64,000 nucleotides of DNA from a virus. Every line of letters starts with the position of its first letter. The stretch's first letter is position 1. Below the pieces are notes generated by a model. It was not told where the DNA came from and did no database searches. It saw only the letters and a list, made by a program, of their open reading frames with translations. Shown one piece after another: positions 42,926 to 51,928 of this stretch. Both the position numbers and the translations under genes were made by a program. The stretch is taken from positions 10,638 to 74,637 of IMG/VR virus record IMGVR_UViG_3300009175_000013; one strand, 5' to 3'.

Positions 42926-45766
42926 TTAGGCTGACACTACACCACCAGCCACGAGGATCTCCTGCGCCCCGAAGCTAGCCCCGGTCCGCAGAATCACCAA
43001 GTTCAGGACGATGAATTCTGCGGAGCGGTTGGGCTTGATGAACACCGAAACCCAGAGTTCGTTCCGATCGATTCTCTCCGGAGTGTTGTTAGTCTCGTCG
43101 CAAACCACTTTGAAGGCAGTCAGGCCACGCCGCGCTGCCACATCACCCAGATATGGTTCGATCAGGTTCCGGATCTGCGCCCGCGTCGAGCCGTCATTGA
43201 ACTCAAACACGAAGTTACGCAACGTCGAGGACAAATTCTTCTTCAGGGAGATACACAGCATCCGGACGTTGACCCGGTCCAGAGCCGTGGATTGCCGCTG
43301 CAGCGTCCGCTGGCCCCATACCGTAATGCCCTGCTGGATGAAGTTCACGATGGCGTTGACCGCATTGCCGCTGCCGTACAGAGCGTCACGCTCACTCTGA
43401 GTGGGATTGTATTCCACATCCAAAGCCGAAAGCACGCTGCCACGGTTCAGGCCAGCGGGAGCATACCACTGTTCCGCCACCCGATCTGTACGGGCAAAGA
43501 CCGCCGCGATGTGGCCGCTTGGCGGAACCCAGATGGTCCCACCATTGTACTGATCGCTAATCTTGAGCCAGCTCCAGTACAGGGCCGCATAGCTGGTATT
43601 CAAGGCCGTTGCCAGATCGCTGGTTAACATCCCATTGTGCCAATCGATCACTTCCTGTGGCCGCAGACCAACTGGCGGATCGATCAGGTACAGGACGTCG
43701 CCACGGTTTTCGCAGAACTGAATGCCCTGAGCCAGCACGGGACCGCTCGAGAATCCGGGGGTAGCCAAGAGGTTGAAGTCGAACGCTTCTGGATTCTGCA
43801 GGGCGTAGATGCCAGTGGAGAGAGCCGGGTTACCGATGACCTTCTGGTCCAGGTAGATGCTGTCTTCGGTTTCCGTCGGGATCCCGTTTTCGCCGCCCAC
43901 AAAAGCCGTATTGGTGAATGGGCTTGGATTCCGTACATCAACCCCAAGGTAGGAAGGACGAGCTTCCCACTGGAAGTAAGTATTGCCAGTCACGCCGCCA
44001 ATTGGGCTGCCGGCATTGACCACATTGCCAATATACCGGGTGGCGGCTGGATCAAAGCTGACATCCTGGGTCACATCAACGGCCATGCCGTTGCCATCCT
44101 TCACCGTGACCTTGTACCGTCCCGCCACATCGCCCACGCCCTCGGTGAACACTTCCAGCGAGATGGTGTAGCCACTGGACCAAGTCCCAGCATATTTCGC
44201 CACGACCCAGCCCACAATGTTGTCATAGTAAGCGGAGTCGGTGACGCACTGAGTCCCACTGGGGGCATCGATACAGGACTGGGGAGTGGTGGGATCGCCC
44301 GAGTTACCTTCAGGGAGCCAGAGCCGTGCGTCGGTGAAGGTCCGGTAGATGGAGGTGTACGGCGGCAGGATGCCGATTTCGTTGGCAAACTGCATAGTCT
44401 CGAAGTGGCTGTAGCTGGCCAGAAGCTTCAGCTGATCGGTCATTCTGGCGTCGGAGGTCTGGACCACCACCAGCTTATCGCCGCCTGGGATGGTCAGAGC
44501 GAATGCGGTGAAATAGTCGGTCCCGCCGTAGTTGGAGTTCGCTTCAAGAGCCGCAGCCAGGGTGGTTGCATCCGTCCCCGAGACCGCAGGAACCACGAAG
44601 TTGAACTCAACCGTGTTGGCCGACCCAATGCAGTCGAGAACGACGCGGTTGTTCGAGCTGGAGAAGTTGTAGGGGCCAGCATTGGTGCCCAGAAGGTGGC
44701 TGCGGGGGATATCATAGGTGTATTGGGCCACGCCGACTTCAGCACAAAAGGCACAAGTCCCAGCCAGCTGAATCCAATCGCCGACCGTATCGGTTTGGAG
44801 AGCCACCACTTCCACGCCGTTGGCATCGAAAGAGGTAGTCGCAGCCAAAGTGGTTACGCCGAGCACGACGTTAATGGCATTGATCAAAGTCGTGTTGGAG
44901 GAGTAGGTGGCCGCAGGCACTACCACGCTGGTAACTGCCCCACCGTCGACTTGGTAGGTCAGGGTGCGGTTGTCGGGTTTGGAGGTGATCACCAAGGTGT
45001 CATTCACACCAACCTGGGTAGCATTGGTAATGGTCACAGTGAAGGAAACCCCGAGGCTTACGCTGTTGAGGGCCAGATTGATTTGGTTGCTGACAGCCCC
45101 AGTGGTGGTGAAAGTGCCAGAGGCGACTTCATCACCTGAGCTGTTAGTGACCACGTAGGTGGCTCCGTCCCACAGGTGGGTGCCGGGGTCGCCAGTAATG
45201 GTAAGGGTGAAGACATCGTCAAGGCAGCCGCTGTACAGAGTCGCGCCACCCACAAAGGAAACAGTAGTGGTGACTGCGCCGACTGAGGGATCGGCAACTT
45301 CGGCGTCATTCCAGGATCCGGCAGTGCTGAGGGCTGCGTGCAGAACAACGGGGGCCGGATTGCCACCAGTGCCATCGCCAACTGGGCGGAATTTGACACG
45401 GCCAAAATCCATGCCCTTGAAGACTGGGATGCGGCCCCAACCCTGCTTGCGTGTACCGGCAGTGTCGATAGCAATCGGCTCTAGGGTGCTTTTGATGCCG
45501 TTGTAGTACTCGACACCTACACGGAGTACATAGCAGGAGTTGCCTTCCTCAAGATACGCCAGGGTGGCATACCCTAGGTAGCTAGTCGGGAACGGATCCC
45601 CGAAGGTGTCAACGAACTGCGCAGCACTGGTGATCAGCGTGGGCACATTGAGAGGGCCTTTGCTGGCGGCACCAATGAAAGCTGGCCTGAGCGTCCCCAG
45701 GTTGCTGGGCAGAAGGCTGAGGTCAATCTCTCTGGTAAATACGCCTGGGCTTAGGAAGACTGCCAT
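42926..45766 (-). CDS. gp18: tail sheath protein (gp18-like)
   Basis: LSPGVFTREID, WVPPSG, WYAPAGLNRG, WGQRT, LDRVNVR, CDETNNTP. Confidence 0.97.
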   Translation of the reverse strand: MAVFLSPGVFTREIDLSLLPSNLGTLRPAFIGAASKGPLNVPTLITSAAQFVDTFGDPFPTSYLGYATLAYLEEGNSCYVLRVGVEYYNGIKSTLEPIAIDTAGTRKQGWGRIPVFKGMDFGRVKFRPVGDGTGGNPAPVVLHAALSTAGSWNDAEVADPSVGAVTTTVSFVGGATLYSGCLDDVFTLTITGDPGTHLWDGATYVVTNSSGDEVASGTFTTTGAVSNQINLALNSVSLGVSFTVTITNATQVGVNDTLVITSKPDNRTLTYQVDGGAVTSVVVPAATYSSNTTLINAINVVLGVTTLAATTSFDANGVEVVALQTDTVGDWIQLAGTCAFCAEVGVAQYTYDIPRSHLLGTNAGPYNFSSSNNRVVLDCIGSANTVEFNFVVPAVSGTDATTLAAALEANSNYGGTDYFTAFALTIPGGDKLVVVQTSDARMTDQLKLLASYSHFETMQFANEIGILPPYTSIYRTFTDARLWLPEGNSGDPTTPQSCIDAPSGTQCVTDSAYYDNIVGWVVAKYAGTWSSGYTISLEVFTEGVGDVAGRYKVTVKDGNGMAVDVTQDVSFDPAATRYIGNVVNAGSPIGGVTGNTYFQWEARPSYLGVDVRNPSPFTNTAFVGGENGIPTETEDSIYLDQKVIGNPALSTGIYALQNPEAFDFNLLATPGFSSGPVLAQGIQFCENRGDVLYLIDPPVGLRPQEVIDWHNGMLTSDLATALNTSYAALYWSWLKISDQYNGGTIWVPPSGHIAAVFARTDRVAEQWYAPAGLNRGSVLSALDVEYNPTQSERDALYGSGNAVNAIVNFIQQGITVWGQRTLQRQSTALDRVNVRMLCISLKKNLSSTLRNFVFEFNDGSTRAQIRNLIEPYLGDVAARRGLTAFKVVCDETNNTPERIDRNELWVSVFIKPNRSAEFIVLNLVILRTGASFGAQEILVAGGVVSA

Positions 45767-46076: not shown

Positions 46077-46898
46077 TTACACTCGTCTATTTAGCATTTC
46101 AGATTCATCAGCAACAACTTTACCCAGAATCACCGGCATAATCTTCGGCGGAATCGATAGCCAAGCCTCCGCCGTATACACCACCTCATACTTTACCTTG
46201 GCGTATTGCTCCGAGGTAGCTTCCTTCTCGCTGGAATCAGCCGAAGAGTCCATCTTCATCTGCACGCATCCCACCGAAATCCCGTCAGAAACCCGCAACT
46301 CGGCTAAAGGATTGAAACGCGTCAGCATCTGATATAGCACATACTCAGCGTCACGCTTGTGCTCGGCCCAGATGCTAATGGTGTAATTCACATTATAAGG
46401 AACCGGACGATAGAACGCTGCCGCCATGGTCCGCTGCCGATTCACAAACCTCTTATGCAGATTGCGATATGGCGGCGAAAACTTCTGCGGATTATAAGTG
46501 TGGCCAGTGCGGCTAATGGAGATCACCGGCAATTTTACCCGGCCATGCTTTAAATCTTCAGTCCAGACTTGCAAGCTGGTCCGCATGCCAGCTACCTTGG
46601 CACGAGCGAAGCGATATGAATCTTTTGACGGCACTCTGATGTCTGACCAATAAGCCTTCATCCCGGCGTCCAAATAGTGAAAGGCCGCGTCGATGGAGTC
46701 TTCCACATAGCCTGGCTCGACCCGGCTCTGCTCCCACTGATTAGGAACTCTACCGCTTTGGGCATCAGATAGCTGATACGCAGCTACCGGCACCATAGGG
46801 CTAATGGGATTGTTAATAGAGCCGCCTGGCACCTGCCCGGCCACAACGCCCCTGGGCACGTTTTCAAAGGTGAAAGAACTACCAAATTGATGAATCAC
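46077..46898 (-). CDS. gp15: tail sheath stabiliser/terminator (gp15-like)
   Basis: VKLPVISISR, PVPYNVNYTISIW, QMLTRFNP. Confidence 0.85.
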   Translation of the reverse strand: MIHQFGSSFTFENVPRGVVAGQVPGGSINNPISPMVPVAAYQLSDAQSGRVPNQWEQSRVEPGYVEDSIDAAFHYLDAGMKAYWSDIRVPSKDSYRFARAKVAGMRTSLQVWTEDLKHGRVKLPVISISRTGHTYNPQKFSPPYRNLHKRFVNRQRTMAAAFYRPVPYNVNYTISIWAEHKRDAEYVLYQMLTRFNPLAELRVSDGISVGCVQMKMDSSADSSEKEATSEQYAKVKYEVVYTAEAWLSIPPKIMPVILGKVVADESEMLNRRV

Positions 46899-47742: not shown

Positions 47743-48158
47743 TTACTTCTCCAGGCGCGGTCTTCACTCTGCACTTGGCAAGGATCAGCCGCGAACGCAT
47801 CGCAATTAGCATTGATCAAAGCCTCCTCATCCTCGGTGGCACCACGCGCCAAACCCCGGATAATTGAATAGTAATCCGTGAGAGGAGCGCAAGGGCAAGT
47901 TTGGTCCACCGCCGGAAGGACCAGTAGCCTTCTATTTCCTGTGAATCCCATGTTGGGGAGAAGCTCAATATATGAGCCTGGGATAGCCTCAAGGATATCG
48001 TTCACATCAGCGATTGATCCCTTGCATAAGCCTTGTAGGCGGATTTGGTTATCCATGGTCACGGAGGTAATGGTGGTCGAAGGCTCACACCCTGGAACTA
48101 AAATGCTACCACCATTCGGGCTTTGAATGACGTTGAACTTAATGCTCTTAGTGATCAT
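47739..48158 (-). CDS. hypothetical protein
   Basis: 139-aa ORF within the operon. Confidence 0.65.
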   Translation of the reverse strand: MITKSIKFNVIQSPNGGSILVPGCEPSTTITSVTMDNQIRLQGLCKGSIADVNDILEAIPGSYIELLPNMGFTGNRRLLVLPAVDQTCPCAPLTDYYSIIRGLARGATEDEEALINANCDAFAADPCQVQSEDRAWRSK

Positions 48159-48159
48159 A

Positions 48160-48921
48160 TTAGTACCGGTAAATCATGCTGGCATAGGGGTCATCTGACA
48201 ACAGTAGGGCTTTCTCGTAAACCTCTTTCTGCAGCTCATACCCCTTAGTCTTCATGGCATCACCATCCAGTGTCAGAGAGCCACCATCTGGACTTGGGAT
48301 GCCACCGAACTTCCCACGGGCGTTGCCGAGCATGATCATGGTCTCGGCTAGCATAAGATCATACACTAGCAGTTTGTTGGCCGGCGTACGCCATGTTGAG
48401 ATCGCTGGGATATAGATCACGAAGACTGGAAACGATCCCTTGGGCGTGGGATATAGCCGGATCTTATTGTCGCCCAAACACTCCCAGTGACCCTCATTAC
48501 CCAAAATGCGTTGGCTGAACCGGCGATATTGTTGCAGTAGTGTGTAGTCAGTAAGGATGGTCTGGATGCCAGTGATGTTTCCAATGTTTGCTGCGATAGA
48601 CTTGGGGATACCGAGTCTTCGCCGATTTTTGTCCATTAAATCAGAATGCGGTGGAACCGAACCACAAGATCGCAGGCACGCTTCTTCCCATGATTTCCCA
48701 TGGTTAGCATCACCAGAAATAAAGTGGGCCATTTCGTCAGCCACAACATCGCCGGCGGCAGCAGTACAAAATTTATATTGTGATAAGAATATCTCCCCCG
48801 TGTTTAAGTCAGTAAACGCTCCCACATTTGCAATTGGAGCGAGCCTTATTTTTAGATTTCGGTATAAATTTGCATTTGTAGTAACATCCTGCTCTCTGGG
48901 AATAGGCATAGTGGTGTTCAT
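48160..48921 (-). CDS. SprT-like domain fused to the C-terminal half of neck protein gp13
   Basis: DEMAH...HGKSW in residues 1-111; then KIRLYPTP and LGNARGKFGGIPSPDGGSLTLDGD, typical of the gp13 C-half; GAGGT SD. Confidence 0.8.
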   Translation of the reverse strand: MNTTMPIPREQDVTTNANLYRNLKIRLAPIANVGAFTDLNTGEIFLSQYKFCTAAAGDVVADEMAHFISGDANHGKSWEEACLRSCGSVPPHSDLMDKNRRRLGIPKSIAANIGNITGIQTILTDYTLLQQYRRFSQRILGNEGHWECLGDNKIRLYPTPKGSFPVFVIYIPAISTWRTPANKLLVYDLMLAETMIMLGNARGKFGGIPSPDGGSLTLDGDAMKTKGYELQKEVYEKALLLSDDPYASMIYRY

Positions 48922-49786
48922 GCGATACCTCGCTGAGTTCTTCTTTACTTTTGAACCATAATGTATAAGTTGTCTCTGGCTTAAGAGCTACCGGATTAAC
49001 AAACTCAATCATGTTGGCATTAAACCCACCCAAGAATAATTCGTACCCAGCTTCACGCTCTTGTGCTGTCACTCCACGAAATTTTGCCCCAGCGTTTTTT
49101 GCAGCTTGAGATGCGTATAGATATTTATCTAGTGGTATCATGTTTTCGGCTGGTTTGACTTCAATCCAACAATCTCCATTCGGTGATTGCACCGAAAAGT
49201 CCACAAAATACGTTCTTTGTTTGCCAGTTAACCTGTCAGCATATGGCACTCTAATTAGCTCATAGTCCCAATTCTCAACAGATGTGTCGCTATCGAGTAG
49301 CAAAGCATAAGATAGCTCGTGAAGCGACTTGAAAAGATGAGGTCCATATCCATATCGTGACTTAGCTTTGTTGATTTTCTTGATGGTTTCTGGATTACAC
49401 CCTGGGTGCCTATAACCAGTCTTCAACAAATACCTAAGCTGCATAGCCGCCGCCGCATGCTTGGGAGGCTTCTTTAGACCATATTTTCGAATTTTAGACC
49501 GGACAGTGTTAAAATGCAACCCCAACGATTCGGCTATGGTCTTTGCGTCTTTGTTCGCAATCAAGTATTCATTATATAAATATTTAGGGGTTAGAACTGA
49601 TGTGTCTTTTCTGGTTTTAATAAACTCGGCATAGGCTATAGAGCTGTGGTTATGAAGCGAGGTATCAACACCCAACTCCTTTAACTTACGTTTAACTGTT
49701 ATTGGTGCACAACCGAATTCGCTTGCGCATTGCTTTAAAGTATGAGATGTGAAATACGCAACAAGTCGTGAGCAATCAATATTCAT
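48809..49786 (-). CDS. PD-(D/E)XK (TnsA-N/gp4-like) endonuclease with N-terminal HTH repeats
   Basis: FKSLHE...LD...WDYE..RVPY...RTYFVDF...IEVKP; AT-rich. Confidence 0.82.
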   Translation of the reverse strand: MNIDCSRLVAYFTSHTLKQCASEFGCAPITVKRKLKELGVDTSLHNHSSIAYAEFIKTRKDTSVLTPKYLYNEYLIANKDAKTIAESLGLHFNTVRSKIRKYGLKKPPKHAAAAMQLRYLLKTGYRHPGCNPETIKKINKAKSRYGYGPHLFKSLHELSYALLLDSDTSVENWDYELIRVPYADRLTGKQRTYFVDFSVQSPNGDCWIEVKPAENMIPLDKYLYASQAAKNAGAKFRGVTAQEREAGYELFLGGFNANMIEFVNPVALKPETTYTLWFKSKEELSEVSHEHHYAYSQRAGCYYKCKFIPKSKNKARSNCKCGSVY

Positions 49787-49822
49787 ATACTATGTTTGAT
49801 TGCCCATTGTGTTATTAATATA

Positions 49823-50536
49823 TTAATGCACCAGTATCGGCTGGCCACCATGGCATCCGTAAAAACAATGTGCACCAACCACATATATTGTTGTGGTCGG
49901 CCCAAACCCAGCGGCCTTAACGTTTAAAATCTTGTTCTTGCAACCAACACCAATCGCCTCCCCAGTCACCGCTTTGGCTTCAACCCAATCATTGATCATG
50001 TCGTCGATACCATTGATTTTGATTGGGTGGTTCGGAGTGCACTTTAGCAGGCCACCCTCGTACACAACCTCAACCAGTTCTTGGTCTTGTTCGTGACGTT
50101 CTAAGATTAATTTGCGAGGTCCATATGGCGTTTTGGCTTTGAATTCGGGCTTCCACTCAGCCAAGTCCACAAGCACCCCATCGTCACGCAAAACCATCAT
50201 CCCATCAGCAAAACAGAACAAGAAGCTCTCGGCCCCGAACACGTCGCCAATATTGGTTGAAACTGGATCCCAAGCCACTTCTTGGACCCAGTAGGCATCA
50301 TTGGGGAGTGGGTAGGTACTCACCAACGGGGTGCTGTAGAAAACGGCGAAACGCTGCTCTTTGGAGAGATAGTGGGCGATGAAGTTGCCCGTGGTCTTGA
50401 GCACGGTCTCCCACTGGTCTTCGCTGACTTCTACTTCTACGGAGGATAGACCTAATTTGGATAGGACATACTTTTTGATTGGTTCGCTGTCAACCTTCAA
50501 AACGTACGGCAGTTCAGACGGTCCCAGAATAGCCAT
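49823..50536 (-). CDS. N-terminal half of neck protein gp13 fused to a Hint domain
   Basis: KKYVLSKLG...VEVEVSEDQ (gp13 N-terminus); GGAGGT SD; Hint domain from residue 108. Confidence 0.85.
   Translation of the reverse strand: MAILGPSELPYVLKVDSEPIKKYVLSKLGLSSVEVEVSEDQWETVLKTTGNFIAHYLSKEQRFAVFYSTPLVSTYPLPNDAYWVQEVAWDPVSTNIGDVFGAESFLFCFADGMMVLRDDGVLVDLAEWKPEFKAKTPYGPRKLILERHEQDQELVEVVYEGGLLKCTPNHPIKINGIDDMINDWVEAKAVTGEAIGVGCKNKILNVKAAGFGPTTTIYVVGAHCFYGCHGGQPILVH
49826..50215 (-). mobile_element. intein-like Hint domain (130 aa) lacking the terminal Asn
   Basis: F|CFADG (block A), KCTPNHPI (block B), TTIYVVGAHCFY (block F), ILVH-stop (block G). Confidence 0.85.
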
Positions 50537-50590
50537 AGTTACCTCCGCTTTATGTTTGCAACGCGAAACTCAGCGGCTAGGCTGACCGGA

Positions 50591-51136
50591 TTATAAGGGG
50601 AAGTGCATCCCGCCGTGCCCGTAGATGACCCCGCCGACATCCATCTTGATCGTCTGCACGTCCACAGAAGTAATGGCCGCTTCAAGCGATGTCTTCAGGG
50701 CTTTGCACGCAGCAGCGTTAGCAGCACTCGGCATGGTGTCAGTACTATACCCCTTTGGCCCAGATGCGGGACCCTTCCAAACTTTCCCCACACTAATTAA
50801 TGTCTTTTCGCCGTAGGGCACCGCGGCGCTGTCGTCATCGTAGAATCCCACTACGGTCACAGTGTCAGGAAATTCGCCCATTTGCGGCTTAACCGAGACA
50901 GCATTAACGGTGCTCGCCAGAGAATCAGCATCTACTGCCAACCCCCAATGTACTGCCCCACCAGGCGCTGCCATATTGATGCCAGGGCCAGTGCCAGACT
51001 CATTTTCGAGTGTGGTATAGAGATCGCCCCAGATGAGGTGGGCAATCCGCTCGCGGCTGCGCACGATCTCAAACCGTTTCCCGCTACCCCGTTCCGGTAC
51101 GATCTTGAAATAAGCCACGAATGGGATTCTATTCAT
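50591..51136 (-). CDS. hypothetical (probably structural) protein
   Basis: GGAG SD and upstream CAAATATA motif. Confidence 0.7.
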   Translation of the reverse strand: MNRIPFVAYFKIVPERGSGKRFEIVRSRERIAHLIWGDLYTTLENESGTGPGINMAAPGGAVHWGLAVDADSLASTVNAVSVKPQMGEFPDTVTVVGFYDDDSAAVPYGEKTLISVGKVWKGPASGPKGYSTDTMPSAANAAACKALKTSLEAAITSVDVQTIKMDVGGVIYGHGGMHFPL

Positions 51137-51174: not shown

Positions 51175-51402
51175 TTAGGCGTTCTCGATGGGAGGATCCA
51201 GCGGGGGAGCGTCGGCGGCTTCTTGGAACAGATCGCCACCGACACTATTTGGCTGCTCTTCTACGAACTTGTCTGCACCCACTTCAAAAATAGTGACCTT
51301 ACCAAAGGTGGCTGGATCATTGGGGCCAACCATAGCCGATAGGTCTTTCTGAGCTGCAACATCCACAGTAACTGGAAGGCCACGGTTTCTGCATCTTGAC
51401 AT
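51175..51402 (-). CDS. 75-aa paralog of the C-half of the upstream protein
   Basis: RGLPVTV...QKDL.AMVG...GADKFV.EQ..SVGGDLF; GAGGT SD and CAAAAATA motif. Confidence 0.7.
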   Translation of the reverse strand: MSRCRNRGLPVTVDVAAQKDLSAMVGPNDPATFGKVTIFEVGADKFVEEQPNSVGGDLFQEAADAPPLDPPIENA

Positions 51403-51443
51403 ATTGCACCTCTGATGATATTTTTGCATAATCCCCAGATACA

Positions 51444-51471
51444 CCAGTGGCCCGGAATTCCGGGCCACTGG
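51444..51471. repeat. perfect 28-bp palindrome
   Basis: ccagtggcccggaattccgggccactgg. Confidence 0.9.
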
Positions 51472-51499
51472 CTGGGGTGTTTCTGAAAAGCCTGCTTGG

Positions 51500-51928
51500 T
51501 TAGGCGTTTTCGACTGGCGGAACGATTGGGGCTGCAGCGGAGGCTTCGGCGAAGAGGTCGCCGCCCACGCTGGCCGCCTGTTCCTGGACGAACTTGTCGG
51601 CACCAATCTGGAAGGTCTCGACCACGCCGACCAGAGTCGGGGCGTTGAGGCCAACCATCGCCTTCAAATCCTTCTGCGCCTGGAGGCCAACGGTGACCGG
51701 CAAGCCACGGGTAGCTCCCGCGCTGGCATGGCCCATGAACGGGCTGAAATCGGTCACAGTGGTAGTCCGGCCATTGTACTGGGTCCGGAATTCCGACCCT
51801 GGGACAACCAGGATCAGCTTACGCAGATGTCCGGTGAGGTTCTTGATCGAGTCGCCGCGGAGGTACTCACGCTGCGAACGAACGGTGCGGAAAATGTGAA
51901 TTGCTGTGTTTAGGGGTTGGTCTGCCAT
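51500..51928 (-). CDS. hypothetical (probably structural) protein
   Basis: AAGGAG SD and CAAAAGTA motif; codon bias resembles the capsid gene. Confidence 0.75.
   Translation of the reverse strand: MADQPLNTAIHIFRTVRSQREYLRGDSIKNLTGHLRKLILVVPGSEFRTQYNGRTTTVTDFSPFMGHASAGATRGLPVTVGLQAQKDLKAMVGLNAPTLVGVVETFQIGADKFVQEQAASVGGDLFAEASAAAPIVPPVENA

Follow-up and report, generated by a model that had tools for sequence, protein, structure and literature searches.

Gene arrangement at the neck locus

The DNA analysed here (the window) is a stretch of 64,000 nucleotides from a viral contig of 74.6 kb, which is estimated to be about 20% complete and on which a single neck gene was detected. In the window, this gene is distributed over the first and the third of three consecutive ORFs on the minus strand (P0002, P0003 and P0001, in this order). 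The first ORF codes for the N-terminal half of the neck protein with a Hint domain attached, the second for a putative homing endonuclease, and the third for a leader of 111 residues followed by the C-terminal half. The neck gene is followed by a gene for a gp15-like stabiliser and then by the tail sheath gene, which is a T4-like gene order. The relevant features are as follows.

49823-50536, minus strand: P0002 (237 aa), neck residues 1-107 (...GAESFLF) and a Hint domain of 130 residues
50216-50536, minus strand: N-half (N-extein, residues 1-107, ...GAESFLF) of a gp13-type neck protein (head-tail adaptor Ad2), from full-length alignment to unsplit homologues
49823-50215, minus strand: complete Hint domain (C108...T-P-N-H...ILVH237, then TAA) without a C-extein, from AF2, Foldseek and profile searches
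48809-49786, minus strand: P0003 (325 aa), a free-standing TnsA-like (PD-(D/E)xK-type) putative homing endonuclease with N-terminal HTH motifs, from Pfam PF08722
48160-48921, minus strand: P0001 (253 aa), leader of 111 residues and neck C-half
48589-48921, minus strand: SprT-like/minigluzincin zincin leader (very probable assignment), residues 1-111 of P0001, from fold and profile matches
48724-48738, minus strand: D62-E63-M64-A65-H66 (DExxH replacing HExxH), read directly from the sequence
48700-48702, minus strand: H74, presumed third metal ligand in the motif D-x-x-H-G-x-x-W/F, invariant in 74 of 74 homologues
48586-48591, minus strand: A111|N112, the junction of leader and C-extein and the predicted scissile bond, from unsplit homologues (FLF|NIGN)
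48160-48588, minus strand: C-half (C-extein, N112-Y253) of the neck protein with stop codon, from identity to unsplit genes
46077-46898, minus strand: gp15-like tail-sheath stabiliser, downstream of the neck gene
42926-45766, minus strand: tail sheath, downstream of the neck gene

The ATG of the leader is at 48921, with a Shine-Dalgarno sequence (GAGG) six bases upstream (48928-48931). The first 113 nt of the leader ORF (48809-48921) lie within the 3' end of the endonuclease gene, an overlap for which the preliminary description had given about 110 nt. This region is thus read in two frames, coding for the last 37 codons of the endonuclease and for the first 37 codons of the leader, which include its conserved first strands.

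Upstream of the neck gene, there are two partly overlapping ORFs on the minus strand (51175-51654 and 51500-51928; 159 and 142 aa), which have very similar C-terminal halves (GLPVTV...AQKDL.AMVG...GADKFV.EQ...VGGDLF.EA...PP.ENA). They resemble a tandem duplication of a small gene. No PHROG match was obtained for either of them.

The neck protein and its point of interruption

Unsplit homologues of the neck protein are abundant. They have 246-260 residues, match PHROG 211 (head-tail adaptor Ad2) and read ...GAESFLF|NIGNISGIQ... without interruption. As they run directly from FLF to NIGN, the neck gene in the window is interrupted between F107 and N112. The Hint domain starts with the first residue after F107, and the last residue of the leader, A111, directly precedes the C-extein, which begins with N112-IGNITGIQ. 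The cut that had been predicted from the sequence (IAA/NIG) is therefore at the extein junction as set by the unsplit homologues. The C-half is 75-80% identical to the matching part of unsplit genes and has a weak Foldseek match to the portal-neck assembly of T4 (9lu6). The leader, which had been described as attached to a structural protein, is thus attached to a gp13-type neck protein (head-tail adaptor Ad2).

A set of 74 homologues with leader and C-half was analysed. N112 is kept in all of them, and the P1 residue is Ala in 51 and Gly in 12. The segment before the junction is conserved as R-(K/R)-R-(L/C)-G-I-P-x-x-I-A-(A/G)|N.

In a C-extein tree, split genes are interspersed with unsplit ones, which requires at least 14 state changes, five of them forced by well-supported branches. 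A tblastn search against 50,697 phage records (cultured phages) returned no Hint half and only unsplit C-halves, these being from jumbo phages.

A group I intron or another removal at the RNA level was rejected: an Rfam search of the region 47900-50800 gave no match up to E 1, and the inserted domains are conserved as proteins.

The partner Hint domain

The Hint domain that follows F107 has a complete fold (AF2 pLDDT 94-98). Its best Foldseek matches are a BIL domain from Clostridium (2lwy; E 3.8e-7, TM by target 0.75), the Tetrahymena BIL2 (6y75) and, with a TM by target of 0.79, the gp41-1 intein. In a profile search against the PDB, 2lwy was matched at 2.3e-5. No Hint domain of this kind was found on longer proteins, which is weak evidence.

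The domain has C108 at position 1 and TPNH as block B. Among 81 homologues consisting of N-half and Hint domain, 68 have Cys and 13 have Ser at position 1, and the TxxH of block B is present in 76. In the window, the domain ends with ...GGQPILVH and a TAA stop codon, so that it stops at the block-G His. The last residue of the 81 homologues is His in 70, Ser in 6, Arg in 2, Lys in 2 and Gly in 1, and is never Asn. As the terminal Asn is missing and position +1 is occupied by Asn and not by Cys, Ser or Thr, splicing as in a classical or split intein is excluded.

It was also considered if the leader could be a C-intein (IntC). This reading was rejected because the leader has an alpha/beta zincin fold, because the junction is A111|N112, and because the Hint domain is already complete on the first ORF. 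A programmed +1 frameshift at the Hint stop codon (His-Asn-Ile) was likewise discarded, as L002-L013 use different stop codons (TAA, TAG and TGA) and show no conservation of the bases that follow.

One database protein (P0216, 367 aa) is a neck N-half with two Hint-fold inserts in one ORF. The first is a classical mini-intein (GAE|C...VVHN|SFLF). It is followed four residues later by an Asn-less Hint domain (...YLVH-stop). As both occur in the same protein, they are distinct kinds of element. This short stretch of the neck gene looks like a hot spot for mobile elements that act at the protein level.

The leader: fold and family

The leader contains the sequence ...GEIFLSQYKFCTAAAGDVVADEMAHFISGDANHGKSWEEAC..., with D62-E-M-A-H66 and H74-G. 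The preliminary description had recognized a SprT-type zincin with Asp as the first ligand. The pattern on which it was based is present, and profile, fold and language-model searches agree with the assignment.

A structure prediction, which had been proposed as a check, returned a zincin fold for the leader. The AF2 model was built on the alignment of the 74 leader and C-half proteins. It has a pLDDT of 88-95 for residues 21-110 and of 83-86 for the stretch up to the junction. The order of elements is three strands, a short helix, the DExxH helix (56-69), two helices and a strand (109-113). The conserved domain begins at about residue 23. A mixed sheet with an active-site helix, which is the zincin fold, is found by AF2, Foldseek, VIA and the ESM Atlas.

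In a Foldseek search against the PDB, the best match was proabylysin (4jiu; probability 1.0, E 0.0099, TM by target 0.56), and proabylysin, selecase and projannalysin were matched with probabilities of 0.97-1.0 at E 0.0099 up to 0.09; no match passed the cut-off of 0.001 of this search. VIA-align, which was run without Foldseek, aligned the leader with 4jiu over 75 residues (Z 7.0, rmsd 3.3, model residues 19-119); among the best matches listed, 4jiu was the only one that is not a helical hairpin. A profile built from 11 leaders matched minigluzincins in the PDB at E 0.0039-0.02 (4jiu at 0.0039), and the Glu, the motif His and the downstream His of the leader profile are all aligned with those of proabylysin and selecase. 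The ESM Atlas, which relies on a model of its own, gave matches to clusters of SprT-like, YgjP-like and WLM proteins (TM 0.61-0.70).

The Pfam model for SprT-like proteins (PF10263) is matched by 8 of 11 related leaders (best E 7.5e-6), and one database homologue (P0103) carries a precomputed PF10263 annotation. A Pfam search with the leader from the window gave no match, evidently due to the Asp at the first ligand position. Wss1 and Spartan, which are SprT-like, have been grouped with the minigluzincins (PMC4559962, PMC5557861), so that both names stand for one fold family. It is very probable that the leader is a true SprT-like zincin. The best explanation of its sequence is a working minimal (about 90 aa) metalloprotease domain of the SprT-like/minigluzincin type, its activity being a prediction.

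Conservation and the Asp variant

The residues E63, H66, H74 and N112 are invariant in the 74 leader and C-half homologues, which are 40-72% identical to the protein from the window. D38 and P29 are nearly invariant. Position 62 is occupied by His in 53 and by Asp in 21 homologues, and by no other residue. The leader from the window belongs to the latter: the canonical HExxH with its two His ligands is absent and D62 is found instead, while the catalytic Glu (E63) and the His that would serve as third ligand (H74) are present. All 21 leaders of the Asp type retain E63, H66 and H74, and each has Trp at position 78. In the His type, Phe is the most frequent residue at position 78 (34 of 53).

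When position 62 was masked, the tree of the leaders required two changes for the Asp forms. A tree in which the Asp forms were held together was slightly better and was not rejected (AU p 0.71), so that a single old change from His to Asp (or the reverse) suffices. The sequences are thus compatible with the Asp forms being one old clade.

The leader profile was searched against 1.84 billion representatives. As a leader, the domain was found only on neck C-halves; the next matches are small stand-alone SprT-like proteins, all with HExxH. The 92 matches include 82 such stand-alone relatives, and the single Asp form among the 92 is a neck leader. A literature search for DExxH zincins returned no natural example, and we know of no zincin with a natural DExxH motif. 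In other metalloenzymes, Asp is a common zinc ligand.

For Asp-type cassettes, split and unsplit C-halves are highly similar in two cases (95% identity between P0028 and P0107, 92% between P0007 and P0023). The Asp cassette has thus recently entered the neck gene or has precisely left it. This gene is the only neck gene detected and is presumably essential, and a dead cassette could not have been gained or lost in this way. From the conservation of the residues and the mobility of the cassette, we conclude that the DExxH form should be functional. The division of the leader family into a His and an Asp type, the compatibility of the latter with one clade, and the argument for activity of the Asp form from recent gain or loss are new here.

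The cassette, its endonuclease and its distribution

The endonuclease P0003 matches Pfam PF08722 (E 1.7e-9). It should be noted that its best PHROG families carry the label "head closure" (phrog_218, 3e-14). This label probably reflects that such nucleases adjoin neck genes, rather than a structural role.

The same layout (N-half with Hint domain, endonuclease, leader with C-half) recurs in the loci L002-L005 and L008-L012. The endonuclease is in the same slot in L002, L004, L008, L009 and L011, and L010 and L012 carry it on the opposite strand. L013 also shows this layout, but no endonuclease could be recognised there. The overlap between the leader gene and the endonuclease gene recurs in L002 and L004. 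Two loci have additional content in this slot. In L008 (2240-3973), two extra ORFs without a Pfam match are next to the TnsA-like nuclease. In L013 (2213-4162), an ORF of 649 aa is on the opposite strand, which has only a weak HTH match and no recognisable nuclease.

Unlike the varying endonuclease slot, the Hint domain and the zincin leader are kept at every compared locus. They are 32-54% identical to those of the window, and the insertion site is constant. It had been suspected that the leader arrived with a mobile cassette. This is borne out, as the three parts (Hint domain, endonuclease and leader) occur or are missing jointly at a single site and the gene overlap recurs. The best explanation is that the leader is part of a mobile cassette of Hint domain, homing endonuclease and zincin, which splits a gp13-type neck gene.

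Proposed mechanism and alternatives

Taken together, the locus is best explained by a self-removing zincin within a Hint/endonuclease cassette, and we hold this overall reading with moderate confidence. Its first part, self-cleavage of the leader at the junction, is reasonably probable. The C-terminal segment of the zincin (RRRLGIPxxIAA|N) would lie in the zincin's own cleft, like the tail of proabylysin, and the zincin would cut once, in cis, at A111|N112, thereby removing itself and exposing the alpha-amine of Asn112. Asp62 would take the place of His as a metal ligand, which may suffice for an enzyme with a single turnover. In the proabylysin zymogen, the tail sits in the cleft of the enzyme itself (PMC5557861). 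The segment before the junction of the leader is modelled with confidence (pLDDT 83-86), which argues against a floppy linker.

Methionine aminopeptidase does not remove Met before Asn. As a protein cannot start with Asn and this enzyme would leave the Met in place, a protease cut is needed for a C-half that begins with N112. The P1' residue at the predicted cut is Asn, and metalloproteases usually favour a hydrophobic residue at this position, which counts against cleavage.

The second part, joining of the two halves, is put forward tentatively. The Hint domain would turn the bond F107-C108 into a thioester. The neck halves would fold together, and the freed amine of N112 would attack the Hint thioester. 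The product would be a native peptide bond (...FLF-NIGN...), formed without Cys, Ser or Thr at +1. The halves would thus be ligated by aminolysis of the Hint thioester, which amounts to a traceless trans-ligation. For BIL2, it has been described that the Hint thioester is resolved by an amine, which results in an isopeptide bond (PMC8616854).

Three alternatives have to be weighed against this reading. The first is trimming without ligation: the zincin removes itself, the Hint thioester is hydrolysed, and two neck chains with native ends are held together non-covalently. We consider this rather unlikely. Fractured genes without splicing are known, such as an SbcD-like locus (PMC2677866) and the split NrdA of phage Aeh1 (PMC3045599). 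The N-half alone gave a low-confidence AF2 model (pLDDT 35-60), which suggests that it folds only together with the C-half; this would also fit a non-covalent assembly. If trimming were the purpose, however, a stop codon after F107 would do, yet a Hint domain of 130 residues with Cys or Ser at position 1 and TxxH is kept among the 81 homologues. To our knowledge, the only chemistry associated with Cys or Ser at position 1 and TxxH is the conversion of the preceding peptide bond into a (thio)ester. The endonuclease slot varies (L010, L012, L013, L008), while Hint and zincin do not, which points to selection for activation of the F107 carbonyl. The retention of the Hint domain is our main argument for a step beyond trimming.

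According to the second alternative, the DExxH leader is a non-catalytic module, dead as a protease, which either stays attached or is removed by another protease and which serves in docking or as a chaperone for the halves or for the Hint domain. The altered first metal ligand and the failure of the leader from the window to match the Pfam SprT-like model would fit. The catalytic Glu and both His are, however, kept in 21 of 21 Asp-type leaders despite long branches, while a pure scaffold would not need E63; in addition, Asp serves as zinc ligand elsewhere, as noted above, and the end of the leader coincides with the extein junction in every case. This makes a non-catalytic module improbable.

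The third alternative had been raised in the preliminary description: the leader as a decaying remnant that merely supplies a start codon, or a C-half translated from an internal start. A public gene call (P0004, 221 aa) starts the ORF at the GTG codon 33, but this codon is inside the conserved domain and its use would remove the conserved first strand, while the ATG at 48921 has the Shine-Dalgarno sequence GAGG; there is no conserved in-frame start near N112 (M96 is Phe in most relatives), and decay is excluded by the confident fold and the catalytic residues (E, H and H), which are kept in 74 of 74 homologues, so that this reading is very improbable.

The self-removing zincin is thus the reading which we retain. 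If the halves are joined as well, the cassette of Hint domain, endonuclease and zincin would be a new kind of self-removing element at the protein level, and the DExxH clade would show a protease step that tolerates Asp as a metal ligand. The joining would then be a new natural chemistry for traceless protein ligation. It would also be a third way, beside introns and inteins, in which a selfish element hides in a presumably essential gene. Even with trimming alone, a self-removing zincin would set a precise N-terminus on a virion protein, and a natural clade of zincins would work with Asp as a substitute for the first His ligand.

Comparison with known systems

Literature searches returned no description of a pair of Hint domain and zincin, and no paper that joins Hint, SprT and phage. 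Searches on Hint, zincin and thioester ligation, and on split intein, metalloprotease and neck, returned only intein reviews and Dassa et al. (2009).

The leader resembles the minigluzincins (proabylysin 4jiu, projannalysin 4jix, selecase 4qhf) and the SprT-like proteins (Wss1, Spartan; PF10263) in having three strands and an active-site helix, and in the motif xExxH followed by a His about eight residues on. As in the proabylysin zymogen (PMC5557861), the C-terminal segment is packed on the domain. Unlike these proteins, the clade from the window has Asp as first ligand, and it has no DNA-binding or Zn-ribbon parts. It is also distinct in its position, as a leader at the N-terminus of a virion protein, to which it is fused where the gene is fractured.

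Structurally, the partner Hint domain is best matched by BIL domains, especially by BIL2 from the BUBL locus of Tetrahymena (6y75; PMC8616854). In BIL2, the thioester is attacked by an amine, which results in an (iso)peptide bond, and the same chemistry is proposed for the cassette. BIL2, however, ends with Asn (the solved structure is the mutant N143A) and shares its chain with ubiquitin-like domains on its flanks, whereas the Hint domain of the cassette lacks this Asn. In addition, the nucleophile of BIL2 is a Lys side chain, and there is no protease partner.

The classical mini-intein of P0216 resides in the same neck gene and is inserted only four residues upstream. It ends with His-Asn, followed by Ser, and can splice normally, in contrast to the Hint domain of the cassette, which ends without Asn.

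Among described arrangements, the fractured gene of Dassa et al. (2009; PMC2677866) comes closest. There too, a phage gene is distributed over two ORFs that are separated by a free-standing endonuclease gene, the first half ends with a Hint fold, and the leader of the second half ends exactly at the extein junction. The words "protease", "peptidase" and "neck" are absent from the text of that paper. In the earlier case, both sides carry halves of true split inteins, whereas here a complete Asn-less Hint domain is on one side and a zincin on the other. The second ORF carries a zincin of about 90 aa and no C-intein, and the C-extein begins with Asn at +1 instead of Cys, Ser or Thr. The cassette thus occupies the Phe|Asn junction with a predicted protease in the place of a C-intein.
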